Source: a virus. Taken from it: a DNA stretch of 17,190 nt. The first letter of the stretch is position 1. Every line of letters starts with the position of its first letter. Shown here piece by piece: positions 1,896-7,868 of this stretch. The notes beneath the pieces are model-generated. The model made no database searches. It saw only the letters and a list, made by a program, of their open reading frames with translations, and was not told where the DNA came from. The stretch is from the UHGV virus genome UHGV-0169021; one strand, given 5' to 3'. Made by a program: the position numbers and the translations under genes.

Positions 1896-2431
1896 TGGTT
1901 GCCTCCTTTGCGAAGCTGTTCAGCAATACTTACGCATATCTCTGCGCCTCTAATCAGCCCCGGAACGTTCTTGTTTGGCCCAACTTCACCATCAACAAAA
2001 TCAATCATCGCGTTACGAGCCATATCCACCCCCTGCGCACGTACTTCAGCCAGGAGAGCGTCGGTAGCTGGGGTTTCAACACAGATGCTGTCGCGCAAGA
2101 TGAAAAATGCATTGAGCATCCCAGTCTCCGGCACTTCATCCTGATACTTCTCATACGCATCAAGAGCCTTCATCATCTCAGGTCCGAATGGTTGAGGGTG
2201 CGCAGATTTCAGTCTCGCATTCTCCGCCGCCAGCGCCGCGCACTTTGCTTCAAGGTTATCAATCGTGATTCCAGCAGAACGACACTCCCGCAACGCCGTT
2301 TCTAGTTTTGATTCAAGTTCACCGAACTTACGGACAAGATATTCAGCGTTTGTTTCGTTAACCTTTAAATCTCGTGGGATGCATTCACCTTTCAGAAAAC
2401 CATCCATCTCAATTAGTGTCATTTGTTTCAT
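1892..2431 (-). CDS. Coiled-coil early-region protein (Ea22-like region)
   Basis: The track start at 2449 is GTG; ATG at 2431..2429 overlaps the upstream stop (ATGA). Predicted coiled-coil-rich product; start choice is uncertain (a further ATG lies at 2422). Confidence 0.5.
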
Positions 2432-2592
2432 TTCTTCCCACTCCGCCACATCGCATTCAGATATTTGTTTTGATTCACTGATGGAAAAGAATTTCTCTTA
2501 AGCAATTCCTCTCTCGATGGCATTGGCTTTACGCGTTGGCGAATAATCATTTCTGCCGGAAGAATGCCGGGATTGTATGCAAGTCCTCTCAT
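2428..2592 (-). CDS. Small hypothetical protein (54 aa)
   Basis: The track ORF 2428..2742 overlaps the upstream gene; an internal ATG at 2592..2590 is preceded by GAGGA and lies just after the upstream stop at 2603. Confidence 0.3.
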
Positions 2593-2602
2593 GGTAAATT
2601 CC

Positions 2603-2896
2603 TCAGTCATTACTGATAGCGCCATAGCGTGAGCGGTAATTACGCAGGCGCGGGTCAATTTCAGGGAAGTGGGTATATGTGGCTTTGCGGAATGGTCGGA
2701 TTGATGTCTGGTAAATTCGCTCGCGTTCTTCTTTCTCTGCAAGCCATATACAGTGGCGAAATTCCTTTTCCTCTTTCGTTTCCTGCGGTAGCGACATTAT
2801 CCGGTCGTAGTTTTTCCTGAATTTATCCAGCACCTCCGATACGGAATTGCCGGAACAGCGGCGCGCGTCATCCGCACCATACAGAGGCGCTGGCAT
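2603..2896 (-). CDS. Hypothetical early-region protein (97 aa)
   Basis: ATG at 2896..2894 with AAGGA upstream; basic and acidic mixed product, no family recognised. Confidence 0.5.
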
Positions 2897-2919
2897 AATG
2901 GAATCCTTATTTTGCTAAT

Positions 2920-3303
2920 TTAGAAGGGAATTGAATCGTCGTATTCAGGATGATTTTGATGATTGCTACTTTGTTGCTGTTGGCTGTTTCCTGAAGTTGC
3001 AAATCCAATCTTTGCATTCAGTAATTCAAGAGTGATTGATTGGCCATTTTGCCCCTGATAAACATCAACCCTGATGTTTTCTCCGGTAATTTCCACAATG
3101 CCACCTTCAACAAGAACACTACGGTAGTAATCCGCTTGCGCTCCCGGCTTGGCAAATACAACGGCGCTGTAGTTTGTCCATTCTTTCTTTTTTGTCTGGC
3201 GATCGTAATACTGAACGCCAGCACGGATGTTGAATCCGATATTTTCCCCGGCCTGAAACTCTCTTGCGGGTTTGTTTAGTCTTACAGTAATCGAATGTGC
3301 CAT
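2920..3303 (-). CDS. ssb: Phage single-stranded DNA-binding protein (short Ea10-like SSB)
   Basis: 127 aa with an OB-fold-like N-terminal part, a Gln/Ser-rich linker and the acidic SSB tail ...EYDDSIPF; ATG at 3303..3301 overlaps the erf stop (TAATG). Confidence 0.8.
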   Translation of the reverse strand: MAHSITVRLNKPAREFQAGENIGFNIRAGVQYYDRQTKKKEWTNYSAVVFAKPGAQADYYRSVLVEGGIVEITGENIRVDVYQGQNGQSITLELLNAKIGFATSGNSQQQQSSNHQNHPEYDDSIPF

Positions 3304-3908
3304 TAAGCAGCCGCTCCTTCTAATTCGTCTCGTCTGATGTTGTAAACGTCCTGCGCTTTGTGCTGCTCAGGTGTGCCTTCGAGCATCTTCCACGCTTTGG
3401 CGAACGCCTGTTTAAGCTCTTCCACGGTGTTTTTCTGCATTGCTGCGTCAGTGAATGCTTTTAGAACCTGTTCAGGTGTAGGTGATGGTTTTGATTGCTT
3501 TGCTGCTGCGTTCTGCTGATGTTTATGCTCGTCTGTATCTGCATCTTTCGCATCATCAATGCCGAATAAACCATTGAGGCAATACTTGCGTGCATAAGAG
3601 CTTGTAGCTCCCGTAACTTGTGCAGAATCCATCCCTTTCTTGCTTTCTTCCTCTCGTGCAAGAGCGGTTGCCGTATGACTGTTTTCGCCATCGGTAATAG
3701 TTGCCGTGGCTTTCACGTAATACCGATCACCAATCAACACAACTTCATCGCTGATTGATAAAAACAGACCATTCAGTAACGGCTTAACGCCTTCAAGAAT
3801 ATCTTCGCAGCTTCTGTATTTATATTTGCCGAATGAGTTGTACTGATTCTTTGGCGCGTTCAGATTCTCCTGAATAGCTGCCAGTCTTGCGTAAAATTCT
3901 TTGCTCAT
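3303..3908 (-). CDS. erf: Erf-family single-strand annealing recombinase
   Basis: Product MSKEFYARLAAIQENLNAPKNQYNSFGKYKYRSCEDILEG... closely matches my recollection of P22 Erf. The track start at 3938 is TTG; the first ATG is 3908..3906. Confidence 0.85.
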   Translation of the reverse strand: MSKEFYARLAAIQENLNAPKNQYNSFGKYKYRSCEDILEGVKPLLNGLFLSISDEVVLIGDRYYVKATATITDGENSHTATALAREEESKKGMDSAQVTGATSSYARKYCLNGLFGIDDAKDADTDEHKHQQNAAAKQSKPSPTPEQVLKAFTDAAMQKNTVEELKQAFAKAWKMLEGTPEQHKAQDVYNIRRDELEGAAA

Positions 3909-3918
3909 ATGATTGTTC

Positions 3919-4089
3919 TCAGAATGGACACGGCCCAAGGAAATAACGCTGATTTAATACTTCGACTCGGGACAAATTAAGGCATACCCGCATTCCTTCG
4001 CGGTCGCCATTATGGCGATACCAGAGAGCTTTCTGCGTGTACATGCGTCTCTGTAACTTGCTCTCCTTCACTGTGGTTGCAAGTGACAT
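3919..4089 (-). CDS. Small protein in the arf/kil position (56 aa)
   Basis: Not in the ORF track (under 60 aa). ATG at 4089..4087 preceded by AAGGAGA at 6-nt spacing; TGA at 3921..3919. Overlaps an alternative 52-aa frame (see findings). Confidence 0.3.
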   Translation of the reverse strand: MSLATTVKESKLQRRMYTQKALWYRHNGDREGMRVCLNLSRVEVLNQRYFLGPCPF

Positions 4090-4519: not shown

Positions 4520-4768
4520 CTACTCTATTTCTTCTTCGAATGATTTTATTAGTCGGTCAATAACATCATCCGTTTCAATATCATTTCCGTCTGATTGCTT
4601 TAATACATCTATTGATTCTGCAGCGGTAAATTCCATCGCTGTGAGAAACTCGACAATTGCACACTCAACGACATATCGTTCTTCATCTGTACGACATGAG
4701 ATAAAAGAGCATTTAATTGCTGTTATTACTTTTTGTTTAAGTTCTGCAGGATAATCAGTTTTTATCAT
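4520..4768 (-). CDS. Acidic hypothetical protein (82 aa)
   Basis: ATG at 4768..4766 with GGAG RBS; about 20 acidic versus 9 basic residues; placed directly after an intrinsic terminator. Confidence 0.5.
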   Translation of the reverse strand: MIKTDYPAELKQKVITAIKCSFISCRTDEERYVVECAIVEFLTAMEFTAAESIDVLKQSDGNDIETDDVIDRLIKSFEEEIE

Positions 4769-4942: not shown

Positions 4943-5266
4943 CTATTCGTCCTTATCTACATTCCTGAACCAAACGCAGATCGGACCGTCTTCTGTATCG
5001 TGAATCGAACCGACAAACCATCCTTCTCCATCTGGCATGCTTGGCTCCCATCCACTGATGTTTTGATTCCCATCTTCAAAATACGCGTCAATTACCGTTT
5101 GATTGTTGTCGTTTTCCATTTCAACAATTGATGATTCAATGCCATGCTGCTTGCAGAAAGATCTGAACTCATCAGCTGAAATTACCTCTCTATCCCCAAA
5201 CAGGTTGGCGTATTCTGGGTGCGTCCAGTAGCCATCCTCGCTTCGCTCTACTACTAATGCTTCCAT
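4943..5266 (-). CDS. Highly acidic hypothetical protein (107 aa)
   Basis: ATG at 5266..5264 with GAGGTG RBS at 5-nt spacing; about 25 Asp/Glu versus about 5 Lys/Arg; no family recognised. Confidence 0.6.
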   Translation of the reverse strand: MEALVVERSEDGYWTHPEYANLFGDREVISADEFRSFCKQHGIESSIVEMENDNNQTVIDAYFEDGNQNISGWEPSMPDGEGWFVGSIHDTEDGPICVWFRNVDKDE

Positions 5267-5375
5267 ATATCACCTCAAATAAGTGGTTTGCTGCCTAATT
5301 TCATTTTCTGTCGACCAACACAAGTCACACCCATTTCACTGCGTGGCTTGCGGTAGTAAATTCGGTTAGTTCAGA

Positions 5376-5402
5376 CAATAAAAAACCCACCGAAGTGGGC
5401 TA
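5376..5402 (-). terminator. Intrinsic terminator directly after the Nun-like gene
   Basis: Minus-strand RNA: GCCCAC-UUCG-GUGGGU followed by UUUUUUAUU; the stem begins within the TAG stop codon. Confidence 0.6.
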
Positions 5403-5732
5403 TGACCATTTTTTATTTGGATTTCGTTGGTGAGCATGATTAACAACTCTGTGCATTACATCCTCATATTTTTCATCTTCAATTTTTTCGACATCGCGAG
5501 GAAATGGTGTTGCTAATGCTTTGTCAACTTTATCCATTGGGTCTTCATTAATCTTATATTCAGGACCGTCATCTATAGCATTAAATCCAGGTGTTACACC
5601 GTTTTTTAATGCATATGCTATCCTCTTTTCCCATCTCGCTATTCTCCTCCTGTCTCGAGATGTAAGACCTCTATCAGATACTTTTCTGTTTTGTCCGCGG
5701 TCAGGATTAACATAAATAGTCTTTTTCACCAT
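5400..5732 (-). CDS. nun: Nun-like transcription-termination / phage-exclusion factor (HK022 Nun family)
   Basis: Arginine-rich motif RGLTSRDRRRIARWEKRIAYALK at residues 22-44 counted from MVKK..., three histidines (HRVVNHAH) and a penultimate Trp (..KKWS), matching the architecture I recall for HK022 Nun. The track start is TTG; ATGs at 5738 and 5732 lie 2 and 8 nt after the N stop. Confidence 0.7.
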   Translation of the reverse strand: MVKKTIYVNPDRGQNRKVSDRGLTSRDRRRIARWEKRIAYALKNGVTPGFNAIDDGPEYKINEDPMDKVDKALATPFPRDVEKIEDEKYEDVMHRVVNHAHQRNPNKKWS

Positions 5733-5740
5733 AAGCATAC

Positions 5741-6046
5741 TCAATAAGCACCGTACGGTAGTTTACTGTACAATTTTATTTTTTGGACTGCATGTATTTT
5801 GTTTCCTAATGGGTTTGAATCCTTGTAATAAATACTTCTATTTTTTCGAACGACTTCTTCTTTCTTCTTGCAGCAAAGGCTTCCTAGTGAAGCTGCTTTG
5901 TCTGCTCTGACGCAACCAGAGAGCTTTAGCGCAATTTTTCGCGCCAGTGCTTCATTACTGCGTCGCTCGGCAATAAGTTCTGCTCTGCGAGCTTTGTAGC
6001 GGCTTTTTGCCGTACCTTTGGATTCTTTCCAGACAATGGTTACCAT
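5741..6046 (-). CDS. N: Antitermination protein N, phi21-type arginine-rich motif
   Basis: Contains GTAKSRYKARRAELIAERR, matching my recollection of the phage 21 N ARM peptide; ATG at 6046..6044 preceded by AAGGAG; first gene downstream of PL and nutL. Confidence 0.8.
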   Translation of the reverse strand: MVTIVWKESKGTAKSRYKARRAELIAERRSNEALARKIALKLSGCVRADKAASLGSLCCKKKEEVVRKNRSIYYKDSNPLGNKIHAVQKIKLYSKLPYGAY

Positions 6047-6156
6047 GATGGTCTCCTTTAAGTGGCTTTGGCGCATGACGCGTCGAGGTGCTTATCTTCT
6101 CGATCGCTGTCTTGCAGCTGCAATTCGCGCCATCCCCAAAACCACTCAAGTTCTGG

Positions 6157-6196
6157 TCTCAACGGTTAGGTTGAGAGTCCGTCGATGTTAAAGAGC
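6157..6196 (-). promoter_or_regulatory. nutL: nutL (boxA plus boxB)
   Basis: Minus-strand boxA GCTCTTTAACA (6196..6186), then boxB hairpin UCUCAAC-CUAACC-GUUGAGA (6176..6157); same loop as the nutR boxB. Confidence 0.7.
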
Positions 6197-6242
6197 CTGC
6201 CAATCTGTTCCGTTTGGCTTCCAGCGTCCTGCTGATGGCTTA

Positions 6243-6296
6243 AATTTAAGACTTCTTAATTTATTGGTCAAGTGCATTTTTGAAGAAAACTTAATT
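6243..6296 (-). promoter_or_regulatory. PL promoter with OL operator(s)
   Basis: Minus strand TTGACC (6271..6266), 17-nt spacer, TAAATT (6248..6243); the 18-bp operator ATTTAAGACTTCTTAATT (6244..6261) shares half-sites with the OR sites; a second weaker site lies near 6279..6296. Confidence 0.55.
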
Positions 6297-6340
6297 TTAT
6301 GGGCGTGAATTTAGTTTGTCTTTGATTTTTAACGGGAAAT

Positions 6341-6360
6341 AAAAAAGGGGCGAAAGCCCC
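6341..6360 (-). terminator. Intrinsic terminator after the repressor gene
   Basis: Minus-strand RNA: GGGGC-UUUC-GCCCC followed by UUUUUUAUUU, immediately after the c2 TAA stop at 6363..6361. Confidence 0.6.
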
Positions 6361-7011
6361 TTAAGGAAGGTTTGCTAGCTTGGCATCAACGACAACGCCA
6401 ATGATTTTACAGTTCCCATTGATTTCAATCATTGGGTATTGTGGATTGAGTGGTTTCAGGAATTTTCTACCGGCATCAATAACTAACTTTTTGAATGTCG
6501 CCTCGTTTTCTCCTTCAAGTTTGGCGACTACCAGCTTTCCATTACGTGGTTCGACTTCTGGGTCGACGAGAATAATCATCCCCTCAGGAATACTCAGTCC
6601 TGCCGGGGCAGTCATTGAATCGCCTTTAACGTCGAGCCAAAAAGAGTCTTCAGAACAATCTACCGTTGTGTCGTACCAGTTATCTATTGCACGCCTATGA
6701 TATGGCTCTACAGCTTCCATCCAACATCCTGCGCTTACCCAACTAATTAGAGGATACGAACCTCTTGGATCATGCCTGCTGTGATAGGCAATGTTTGAAA
6801 GACTATCCTCTCCTTTCAACAGGTAATCAGGGGAGCACTGCAAAGCCTTGGCTAAGGCCAATAGGTTTTCGCCATTGGGCTCAGTTTCAGATCGCTCCCA
6901 TTGGGAAATAGCAACATTAGACACGCCAACCATCTTGCCAAGGGCAGCCTGCCTAATCTTGAGTTCTTTTCTGCGAGCGCGAATACGCTCACCCATCAGT
7001 TGTGTATTCAT
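6361..7011 (-). CDS. c2: CI-type repressor (P22 c2-like), HTH plus LexA-like S24 autopeptidase domain
   Basis: 216 aa; N-terminal HTH (...QAALGKMVGVSNVAISQWERSE...), C-terminal GDSM active-site serine region; matches my recollection of P22 c2. ATG at 7011..7009 abuts OR3. Confidence 0.9.
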   Translation of the reverse strand: MNTQLMGERIRARRKELKIRQAALGKMVGVSNVAISQWERSETEPNGENLLALAKALQCSPDYLLKGEDSLSNIAYHSRHDPRGSYPLISWVSAGCWMEAVEPYHRRAIDNWYDTTVDCSEDSFWLDVKGDSMTAPAGLSIPEGMIILVDPEVEPRNGKLVVAKLEGENEATFKKLVIDAGRKFLKPLNPQYPMIEINGNCKIIGVVVDAKLANLP

Positions 7012-7077
7012 AGTTAAGACATCTTAAATAAACTTGACTTAAGATTCCTTTGGTGGATAATTTAAGTGTTCTTTAAT
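7012..7077. promoter_or_regulatory. OR operators (three 18-bp sites about 24 bp apart) with PR and divergent PRM
   Basis: AGTTAAGACATCTTAAAT (7012..7029), weaker ACTTAAGATTCCTTTGGT (7036..7053), ATTTAAGTGTTCTTTAAT (7060..7077); PR is TTGACT (7034..7039), 17-nt spacer, ATAATT (7057..7062). Confidence 0.7.
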
Positions 7078-7091
7078 TTCGGAGCGAGTCT

Positions 7092-7277
7092 ATGTACAAA
7101 AAAGATGTTATTGACCACTTCGGAACCCAGCGTGCTGTTGCTAAAGCACTAGGCATTAGCGATGCAGCAGTCTCTCAGTGGAAAGAAGTTATCCCAGAGA
7201 AAGACGCCTATCGATTGGAAATCGTTACAGCTGGCGCCCTGAAGTATCAAGAAAGTGCTTACCGCCAAGCGGCATAA
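7092..7277 (+). CDS. cro: Cro repressor (P22-type)
   Basis: 61 aa, MYKKDVIDHFGTQRAVAKALGISDAAVSQWKE...; GGAG RBS; first gene of the PR operon. Confidence 0.85.
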   Translation: MYKKDVIDHFGTQRAVAKALGISDAAVSQWKEVIPEKDAYRLEIVTAGALKYQESAYRQAA

Positions 7278-7284
7278 GCAAATT

Positions 7285-7324
7285 GCTCTTTAACAGTTCT
7301 GGCCTTTCACCTCTAACCGGGTGA
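7285..7324 (+). promoter_or_regulatory. nutR: nutR (boxA plus boxB)
   Basis: boxA GCTCTTTAACA (7285..7295), then boxB hairpin UCACCU-CUAACC-GGGUGA (7307..7324). Confidence 0.7.
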
Positions 7325-7392
7325 GCAAACATCAGCGGCAAATCCATTGGGTGTGCCGCTATAACTCAATATCAATATAGGAAAATTAACAA

Positions 7393-7689
7393 ATGGCACA
7401 AGCAAGCTACAGCAAGCCAACACAGCGAGAAATTGATCGCGCTGAAACTGATTTACTCATCAACCTGTCAACGCTTACCCAGCGCGGTCTGGCAAAGATG
7501 ATTGGCTGTCATGAATCGAAGATAAGCAGAACGGACTGGAGATTTATTGCTTCGGTTCTGTGTGCTTTCGGAATGGCATCAGACATCAGTCCGATTAGCA
7601 GGGCTTTTAAGTATGCGCTTGATGGACTCACAAAGAAAAAATCCCCGGCTGCCACCGAGGATTCTGAGCAAATTGATATGCAATTCTGA
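7393..7689 (+). CDS. cII: CII-family transcriptional activator (P22 c1 / lambda cII type)
   Basis: 98 aa; C-terminus ...KKKSPAATEDSEQIDMQF parallels the lambda CII C-terminus (KKRPAATERSEQIQMEF) as I recall it. Confidence 0.85.
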   Translation: MAQASYSKPTQREIDRAETDLLINLSTLTQRGLAKMIGCHESKISRTDWRFIASVLCAFGMASDISPISRAFKYALDGLTKKKSPAATEDSEQIDMQF

Positions 7690-7721
7690 GGTAATTACTG
7701 GATCAATCCACAGGAGTAATT

Positions 7722-7868
7722 ATGACAAAACAACTCAGTCCTTACCAGGACAAAATTCACAAACACATACTACGTGATCGCTTCCTGTCCAGCTTCAAGC
7801 AGCCTGGTCGATTCCGGGCTGAGTTGGAAAAAGTGAAGCTGATGCAGAAGGAGAAAGGTCATGAGTAA
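7722..7868 (+). CDS. Small hypothetical protein (48 aa) between cII and the O-like gene
   Basis: Not in the ORF track. ATG at 7722 preceded by AGGAG at 5-nt spacing; its stop overlaps the O-like ATG. Confidence 0.35.

Follow-up and report, generated by a model that had tools for sequence, protein, structure and literature searches.

The Nun protein of phage HK022 excludes phage lambda and lambda imm434, which share NUT sites (PMC4124055), by arresting transcription, and both the arrest mechanism and the Nun residues that are key to it, three histidines, two lysines and a penultimate tryptophan, have been set out (PMC5386594). The specificity of this exclusion was termed "unique" in a 2015 review (PMC4496710). 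HK022 antiterminates through put RNA and has no N, and Nun has been studied almost only in this N-less phage. Phage 21, the other described system of relevance here, has an N gene with nut sites of its own type, lacks nun, and passes from N directly to ral. We report here on 17,190 nt of the UHGV virus genome UHGV-0169021 (hereafter the window, to which all coordinates refer unless a locus is named), a mosaic lambdoid prophage in which the left operon, with a pL-like promoter at 6243-6271 and minus-strand orientation, contains a complete N gene followed almost at once by nun. We consider it highly probable that this is HK022 nun borne by an imm21-type prophage with its own phage 21-type N and nut sites, and that its Nun would target lambda nut sites while sparing the prophage that makes it. 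The anatomy of the nun cassette, the location of the nun promoter (P_Nun) within N, the relic of N in HK022 and the existence of a family of Nun-tail proteins with exchanged N-termini are new in this analysis. Coexistence with N is the usual natural context of Nun and not a rarity, and it is the N-less HK022 that is the odd one out.

The nun coding sequence occupies 5400..5732 (-), comprises 110 codons from an ATG at 5732 to a TAG stop at 5400-5402, and specifies an HK022-type transcription arrest and exclusion factor. Its start lies 8 nt past the N stop; with the alternative in-frame ATG at 5738, which the mEp235 record uses at the corresponding position, the gap shrinks to 2 nt. This agrees with a preliminary description of the same DNA, which had placed an open reading frame (ORF) of about 110 codons 2-8 nt beyond N and had called its product Nun-like. 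Aligned to HK022 Nun (PDB 6ALG chain N), the product is identical at 108 of 109 residues, with residues 12-109 matching throughout; the sole difference, S11R, falls outside both functional regions. The arginine-rich motif (ARM, residues 20-44) agrees at 26 of 26 positions with the Nun peptide whose structure bound to lambda boxB is available (PDB 1HJI), and the C-terminal arrest residues H93, H98, H100, K106, K107 and the penultimate W108 are all kept, so that the Nun-type ARM, the three C-terminal histidines and the penultimate tryptophan of that description are borne out. Its suspicion of a relationship to Nun was right, and its qualifier was too cautious: at 99% identity a divergent Nun-like homolog is ruled out, and the alignment identifies the protein as Nun itself. 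PHROG 5632 ("Nun-like transcription termination factor") matches it at E = 2e-69 and is its sole match among curated models, Pfam and NCBIfam holding no curated Nun model. The ratio of non-synonymous to synonymous substitution rates (dN/dS) for nun is 0.12 against PA28, 0.08 against mEp235 and 0.03 against HK022, and the 20 nucleotide differences from PA28 translate into just 7 amino-acid changes. With dN/dS at 0.03-0.12, purifying selection on nun is strong among N-bearing lineages, and the gene is clearly maintained in phages that also possess N.

The N gene upstream (5741..6046, minus strand, ATG at 6046 and TGA at 5741) encodes an antiterminator of 101 amino acids that begins MVTIVWKESKGTAKSRYKARRAELIAERR. 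It agrees with phage 21 N at every one of residues 1-57, and the ARM, GTAKSRYKARRAELIAERR, is identical over 22 of 22 positions to the phage 21 N peptide in PDB 1NYB; PHROG 271 ("anti-termination protein N-like") recognizes the protein at E = 5e-31. The sites that such an N would read are present on both sides of the immunity region. In nutL, a boxA (GCUCUUUAACA, 6186..6196, minus strand) that matches the annotated phage 21 boxA-L precedes a boxB (UCUCAAC-CUAACC-GUUGAGA, 6157..6176, minus strand) that folds into a 7-bp stem with a 6-nt loop and is identical to the nutL stem-loop annotated in phage 21 (OL657228). In nutR, the boxA (GCUCUUUAACA, 7285..7295, plus strand) and the boxB (UCACCU-CUAACC-GGGUGA, 7307..7324, plus strand), which also folds to expose a CUAACC loop, are likewise identical to the annotated phage 21 nutR. 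Both hairpins, with stems of 6-7 bp and a boxA upstream of each, are thus of the type that the preliminary description had assigned to phage 21 from the CUAACC loop, and its assignment of N to the same type is upheld by the alignment.

This likeness to phage 21 extends well beyond N. Window positions 5824-7729, which cover the first three quarters of N, its leader, nutL, pL/OL, cI, cro, nutR and cII, align to phage 21 with 98.0% identity by blastn (97% over 5824-6400 taken separately, and 97-98% across the features named, with boxB identical). The promoter scan places a pL candidate (TTGACC, 17 nt, TAAATT) at 6243..6271 (-), in a region 98% identical to phage 21 pL/OL. The immunity region (6361..7277) comprises a cI repressor (6361..7011, minus strand; Pfam Peptidase_S24/HTH_3) and cro (7092..7277, plus strand; Pfam P22_Cro), and because the cI/cro/cII region is 98% identical to that of phage 21 we classify the prophage as imm21-type. 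No lambda-type boxB (GCCCTGAARAAGGGC) was found anywhere in the 17-kb window with up to 3 mismatches allowed, and no exact copy in 14 further loci examined. Neither putL nor putR RNA was found in the window: HK022 homology within 5200-6400 is confined to 5383-5858, which excludes putL, and a gathering-threshold Rfam scan of the window, HK022 and two of the further loci (L009 and L006) gave as its only match a tRNA in the Hafnia phage (L006). Lacking lambda boxB and put, the window phage therefore appears to rely on phage 21-type N and nut.

The N on which this would depend is a chimera, and the phage 21 C-terminal region is not kept: the last ~40 residues, the part that in lambda N contacts RNA polymerase, belong to a different allele, which is shared with a relic in HK022. 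One might suppose that N was crippled by this exchange and that the prophage is defective or uses another route of antitermination, in which case the question of compatibility with Nun would be moot; the Pfam N_peptide match, which stays below threshold, could be read in the same sense. We think this very improbable. The phages mEp235, mEpX1 and Kapi1, whose database entries are complete phage genomes with E. coli hosts, share this N with a C-terminus 98-100% identical, and on this account a defective chimera was ruled out. The dN/dS of N is 0.38, and the absence of a put site, with HK022 homology limited to 5383-5858 and no Rfam match in the window, also speaks against an alternative route. 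The C-terminal allele is moreover 66-75% identical to N of the Salmonella phages ES18, BTP1 and L and is also related to the lambda-type N of locus L009, and because its relatives are N proteins we regard it as a genuine N C-terminus. At more than 90% identity, it occurs only next to nun.

We propose that the two systems work side by side as follows. In the lysogen, pL would be repressed and nun, given its identity with the HK022 arrangement, would be transcribed from the constitutive P_Nun that lies inside N, with transcripts ending at the terminator past nun. Were a phage with lambda nut sites to superinfect, the Nun ARM would be expected, from the 108/109 identity, to bind lambda-type boxB on the nascent RNA, and the tail (His93, His98, His100, Lys106, Lys107 and Trp108) would wedge into RNA polymerase and block its translocation. 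The arrested polymerase would leave the early operons of the invader silent, a mechanism that is established for HK022 Nun and is extended to the window protein on the same identity. At its own nutL and nutR the prophage has phage 21 boxB with its CUAACC loop, which its own N would read; since these sites are not lambda-type, its own development should be spared. Induction would place N and nun together on a transcript from pL, and polymerase modified by N would pass the nun terminator into the remainder of the left operon.

Hybrids carrying imm21 are reported to escape Nun exclusion (Robert et al. 1987). The phages mEp235, mEpX1 and Kapi1, plaque-forming isolates that bear the same block of N and nun, point the same way, for Nun evidently does not block their own N-dependent development. 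As Nun exclusion tracks shared NUT sites (PMC4124055), escape from self-exclusion by means of a different boxB is the natural reading. The partition of specificities that the preliminary description had proposed is in this sense well supported as a predicted mechanism, by the identities, by purifying selection and by the absence of lambda boxB.

Several points weigh against this proposal and should be stated together. The indifference of HK022 Nun to phage 21 nut sites rests on the reported escape of imm21 hybrids (Robert et al. 1987) and on the phrasing used in PMC4124055. In vitro, Nun at about 300 nM also arrests non-specific complexes (PMC5386594), and its over-production is toxic (PMC5386594; PMC4496710); Nun made from pL during lytic growth could therefore affect its own phage. 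The -35 hexamer of P_Nun (ATGCAG) is poor, and promoter activity in this context is deduced from HK022. Among the related loci discussed below, the Nun of a Klebsiella locus (L016) has an ARM that resembles that of a second, downstream N of the same locus, and in L009 a lambda-type N that is intact accompanies an HK022-type Nun; L009 uses put sites, and no lambda boxB is present in the 5.3 kb read from it.

One alternative is that Nun acts on its own phage, by weak binding to phage 21-type nut sites or by non-specific action, and thereby damps leaky transcription from pL and pR; it would then aid the upkeep of lysogeny or time the N-dependent switch, and exclusion of lambda would be a side effect. 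The position of nun as second gene of the pL operon, perhaps translationally coupled to N (the gap is 8 nt and no obvious Shine-Dalgarno sequence precedes nun), would suit such a role, as would the arrest of non-specific complexes at about 300 nM, competition with N, and the retention of a tight N-Nun tandem in distant phages. Against it, HK022 nun mutants lyse and lysogenize normally, and exclusion of lambda is the only known function of Nun (PMC4496710). The boxB loops and stems of the window are wholly unlike those of lambda, and the rule, seen across loci, that resident N and Nun carry different kinds of ARM argues that self-action is avoided. On balance we judge a self-acting Nun unlikely, and we retain the proposal that Nun is directed at lambda nut sites and spares its own.

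The structure of the locus suggests how the two systems came to be joined. Comparison by blastn and a four-way alignment delimit a nun cassette at 5383..5858 (-) that consists of an alternative N 3' end, P_Nun, nun and a terminator. This segment is 96.4% identical to HK022 and spans nun, the terminator stem and the 126 nt upstream of nun, including the P_Nun hexamers. On its far side, window positions 5260-5367 return to phage 21 (96% identity) and correspond to the final ~31 codons of phage 21 N and, past these, to the ribosome-binding site for the gene that follows. The cassette, of ~480 bp, thus interrupts, at about codon 63-74, an N of phage 21 type. It supplies its own N 3' end (…EEVVRKNRSIYYKDSNPLGNKIHAVQKIKLYSKLPYGAY*), which preserves the N reading frame, and leaves the displaced phage 21 N 3' end silent past the terminator. 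That displaced end persists at 5275..5370 (-) as a relic that is 96% identical to the phage 21 N 3' end, reads TNRIYYRKPRSEMGVTCVGRQKMKLGSKPLI* and has no start codon; lying downstream of the nun terminator and untranslated, it is the only surviving true phage 21 N C-terminus in the window. The arrangement can be set against both of these known systems. Phage 21 passes uninterrupted from N to ral, whereas the window N is cut by the cassette and ends in another allele. In HK022 as in the window, nun belongs to the pL operon and neighbours the immunity region; HK022 differs in that the sequence upstream of nun, a live N 3' end in the window, is a relic there, and in that IS903 lies downstream of nun where the window has the phage 21 N relic.

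The predicted signals for independent expression of nun lie within the cassette. A promoter in HK022 is reported, by King, Madsen and Weisberg (J Bacteriol 2000), to drive constitutive nun expression in lysogens, and transcripts from it should end just after nun. In the window, a -35 hexamer (ATGCAG, 5788..5793, minus strand) and a -10 hexamer (TACAGT, 5765..5770, minus strand) are identical to those annotated as the nun gene promoter in the HK022/lambda hybrid O276 (MH547045), the GenBank annotation of which is the basis for placing P_Nun here. The spacer between the hexamers is identical as well. Both hexamers sit within the final third of N, in 81 nt of sequence with a single mismatch to O276. 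At the other end, the terminator scan identified an intrinsic terminator (AGCCCAC-UUCG-GUGGGUU followed by U6) at 5378..5401 (-), which overlaps the nun stop. Its 7-bp stem folds at -10.3 kcal/mol (z = -4.2), and 0 of 200 shuffled sequences fold as well, in keeping with the strong UUCG-loop terminator noted in the preliminary description.

In phage PA28 (locus L005, KP682381; ~2590-3250) and in Stx1a-converting phages, a 1-nt deletion just ahead of the N stop causes the N ORF to run on over the start of nun, and the terminator hairpin is degenerate (CCCACTTCGATAG); nun is intact in this lineage, with 93.6% amino-acid identity. This variation bears on a further explanation, in which nun is a passive passenger, a recombination scar left by an HK022-like phage and either unexpressed or without function in its present setting. 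The clear mosaic junctions and the duplicated N 3' ends that flank the cassette could be taken for such a scar, the RefSeq label is merely "hypothetical protein", and the PA28 lineage has both lost its N stop and let its terminator decay. The purifying selection documented above speaks firmly against neglect, and on dN/dS we ruled out nun as a pseudogene or passenger. Every functionally mapped residue is intact, promoter hexamers and terminator are conserved, and the gene has matches, almost all of them full-length, in 220 complete E. coli genomes, so that we attach minimal weight to this explanation and prefer a functional nun.

The 220 genomes were found among 5,426 complete E. coli genomes. 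At least 212 of them carry the whole N-nun block, counted where a match covers at least 80% of the N-nun query, and the 1051-bp block recurs at the same coverage in 22 phage records with 91-99% identity. Carriers include mEp235, mEpX1, Kapi1, PDP110P1, PA28 and Stx1a-converting phages, which share the order N, nun, terminator and N relic, so that the window is one more copy of an established architecture; the PA28 and Stx1a phages depart from it in their frameshifted N end and weakened terminator. The N-less arrangement is in the minority and is represented by HK022, HK75 and the hybrid O276. The preliminary description had presented the pairing as a novelty, and this the database search does not support: the block is common. 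It is also half described, in that the GenBank entries of mEp235 and mEpX1 label a "transcription termination factor Nun" beside an "antitermination protein N" and PHROG 5632 bears its Nun-like name, and no paper on it was found. A full-text literature search yielded nothing on the N-nun pairing, on Nun homologs, on Nun of mEp235, mEpX1 or Kapi1, or on the N relic of HK022, although an earlier description in the older subscription literature is possible.

The statement that HK022 has no N needs qualifying, for it retains a 38-codon relic of the N 3' end directly upstream of nun. The 126 nt concerned translate in the N frame to …EVVRKNRSIYCKDSNPLGNKIHAVQKIKLYSKLPYGAYW, the stop being mutated from TGA to TGG, and they bear no annotation in the HK022 records. 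The most economical reading would be that HK022 descends from an N-nun phage in which the 5' two-thirds of N together with nutL were replaced by putL, with P_Nun left behind in the relic. Because the nun leader of HK022 is a relic of N, the paired arrangement is suggested to be the older one. A protein known from an N-less phage is nearly always paired with N in nature, with its lysogenic promoter embedded in N, and this pairing, the location of P_Nun and the HK022 relic recast the view of how nun originated and is regulated.

Nun also has relatives beyond this block. A profile search recovered 98 protein clusters (at 90% identity), and when 1.84 billion representatives were scanned exhaustively, just 29 clusters emerged at 50% identity. 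Hosts, where named, are E. coli, Citrobacter, Hafnia, Pantoea, Providencia, Yersinia, Klebsiella, Enterobacter and Photorhabdus, all of them Enterobacterales. These proteins share a near-invariant tail (D-A/V-M-x-R/K-V-V-N-H-A-H-Q-R-x-P-x-K-K-W) and diverge sharply in their N-termini, which fall into several ARM classes. One is HK022-type (DRRRIARWEK). A second is lambda-N-type (MDAQARRREKRKEKQEEWK), matches Pfam N36 and is 56% identical to lambda-type N over 52 residues; some of its members are labelled "antitermination protein N" in public records, which, if the conserved tail arrests RNA polymerase as that of HK022 Nun does, states the opposite of their function. A third is phage 21-N-type, represented by P0080, which is 52% identical to the window N over 46 residues, and further classes include P22-like ARMs and others. 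The Nun-tail proteins of other Enterobacterales (Pocitis76 ORF43 and those of Pantoea, Klebsiella, Providencia and Yersinia, among others) thus have the same tail as the window Nun, with genes in the pL operon 1-20 nt downstream of N, and ARMs unlike it. A literature search for experimental work on Nun-tail proteins other than the HK022 type turned up none.

The Nun-tail gene lies 1-20 nt past an N-type gene, or overlaps it, in the window, in Pocitis76 and in loci L011, L015, L016, L017, L018 and L020. In 8 of 8 of these loci, the first 50 amino acids of the Nun-tail protein show no relationship to the first 50 of the N upstream of it (local scores 17-34), and several Nun N-termini match N proteins from other loci strongly (local scores 77-126). 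This suggests that Nun-tail ARMs may have been borrowed from rival N genes, and the pattern across the family supports the partition of specificities as a probable general rule. We would go further and propose, with the case for and against about evenly balanced, that Nun is the founding member of a modular "anti-antiterminator" family, in which an arrest tail is combined with interchangeable ARMs, several of them taken from rival N proteins of lambda, phage 21 and P22-like type; the resident N would be heterotypic and its own nut sites spared, tandem N and Nun genes with flanking N 3' ends would offer a substrate for recombination, and HK022 would be a derived form. If so, a prophage would disarm the nut sites of its competitors and spare its own, with genes sometimes in arrays of two, and Nun variants with a phage 21 ARM, of which P0080 is one, would be predicted to act on the window prophage itself. 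ARMs that mimic N would then suggest a general and programmable exclusion strategy, one that makes testable predictions of which variant acts on which type of nut.

Individual loci illustrate the range of arrangements. In the Klebsiella sp. P1CD1 locus (L016, CP033631; 2632-3798), an N (N1, ARM GRRRERRAALQN) is followed by Nun (ARM NRRYKQRGELMAKRK) and a second N (N2, ARM TRRYLKRGELMAKRR); the likeness of the Nun ARM to that of N2 hints at ARM capture by local recombination, and the locus is an exception to a strict rule that a phage's own N never is the target. Locus L009 (Logan ERR3406188_276; 2300-3940) has HK022-like putL and putR sequences in a phage with two tandem Nun-tail genes, the first with an HK022-type and the second with a phage 21-like ARM, followed by a terminator, a structured leader of ~450 nt and an intact lambda-type N of 107 amino acids. 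The Hafnia phage Pocitis76 (L006, OL512804) also has two Nun-tail genes after N (2240-3180), one with a lambda-N-type ARM (2501-2767) and one with a GRRRLRRLEAA-type ARM (2875-3180), and the tRNA mentioned above (RF00005, 47 bits, annotated as tRNA-Gly) lies at 2138-2217, between nutL boxA and N.

In locus L019 (JGI 3300022758 Ga0255597_108343; 3001-3372), a gene at the N position, after a boxA-like TGCTTTTTAACAA, encodes 123 amino acids with an N-like ARM and central region and a Nun tail at the end, and no separate N was seen upstream. In Citrobacter braakii (L008, MTJW01000031; 594-1060), nun is followed at once by an ORF of 47 codons, of which the last 33 residues (ERKNHRTWYKDANPFGNKIHAVQKSRGKSTPLI) correspond to an N C-terminus; it is another N 3' fragment flanking nun. 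An E. coli Nun variant (P0003) has a 7-residue internal duplication within its ARM (RIARWEKRIARWEKRIAYAL). The extreme C-terminus of phrog_12139, a family of unassigned function with 289 positions, matches Nun residues 82-110 (E = 2e-4) and may represent a larger protein with a Nun-like tail.

Elsewhere in the left operon of the window, a long hairpin between nutL and the N ribosome-binding site (6058..6149, minus strand) folds at -43.2 kcal/mol (z = -5.0), with 0 of 200 shuffles as stable; from its position, it probably corresponds to the RNase III hairpin of the lambda N leader. Stems like CTTTGGGG…CCAAAG precede N in the Hafnia phage, L009, L016 and L017, and in the Hafnia phage the arms of the stem flank the tRNA. 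The first gene beyond the nun cassette (4943-5266, minus strand) encodes a protein of 107 amino acids with no assigned function (PHROG 1372), and its ribosome-binding site is the one that ral has in phage 21; the next gene (4520-4768, minus strand) encodes an anti-restriction protein homolog (PHROG 14587).

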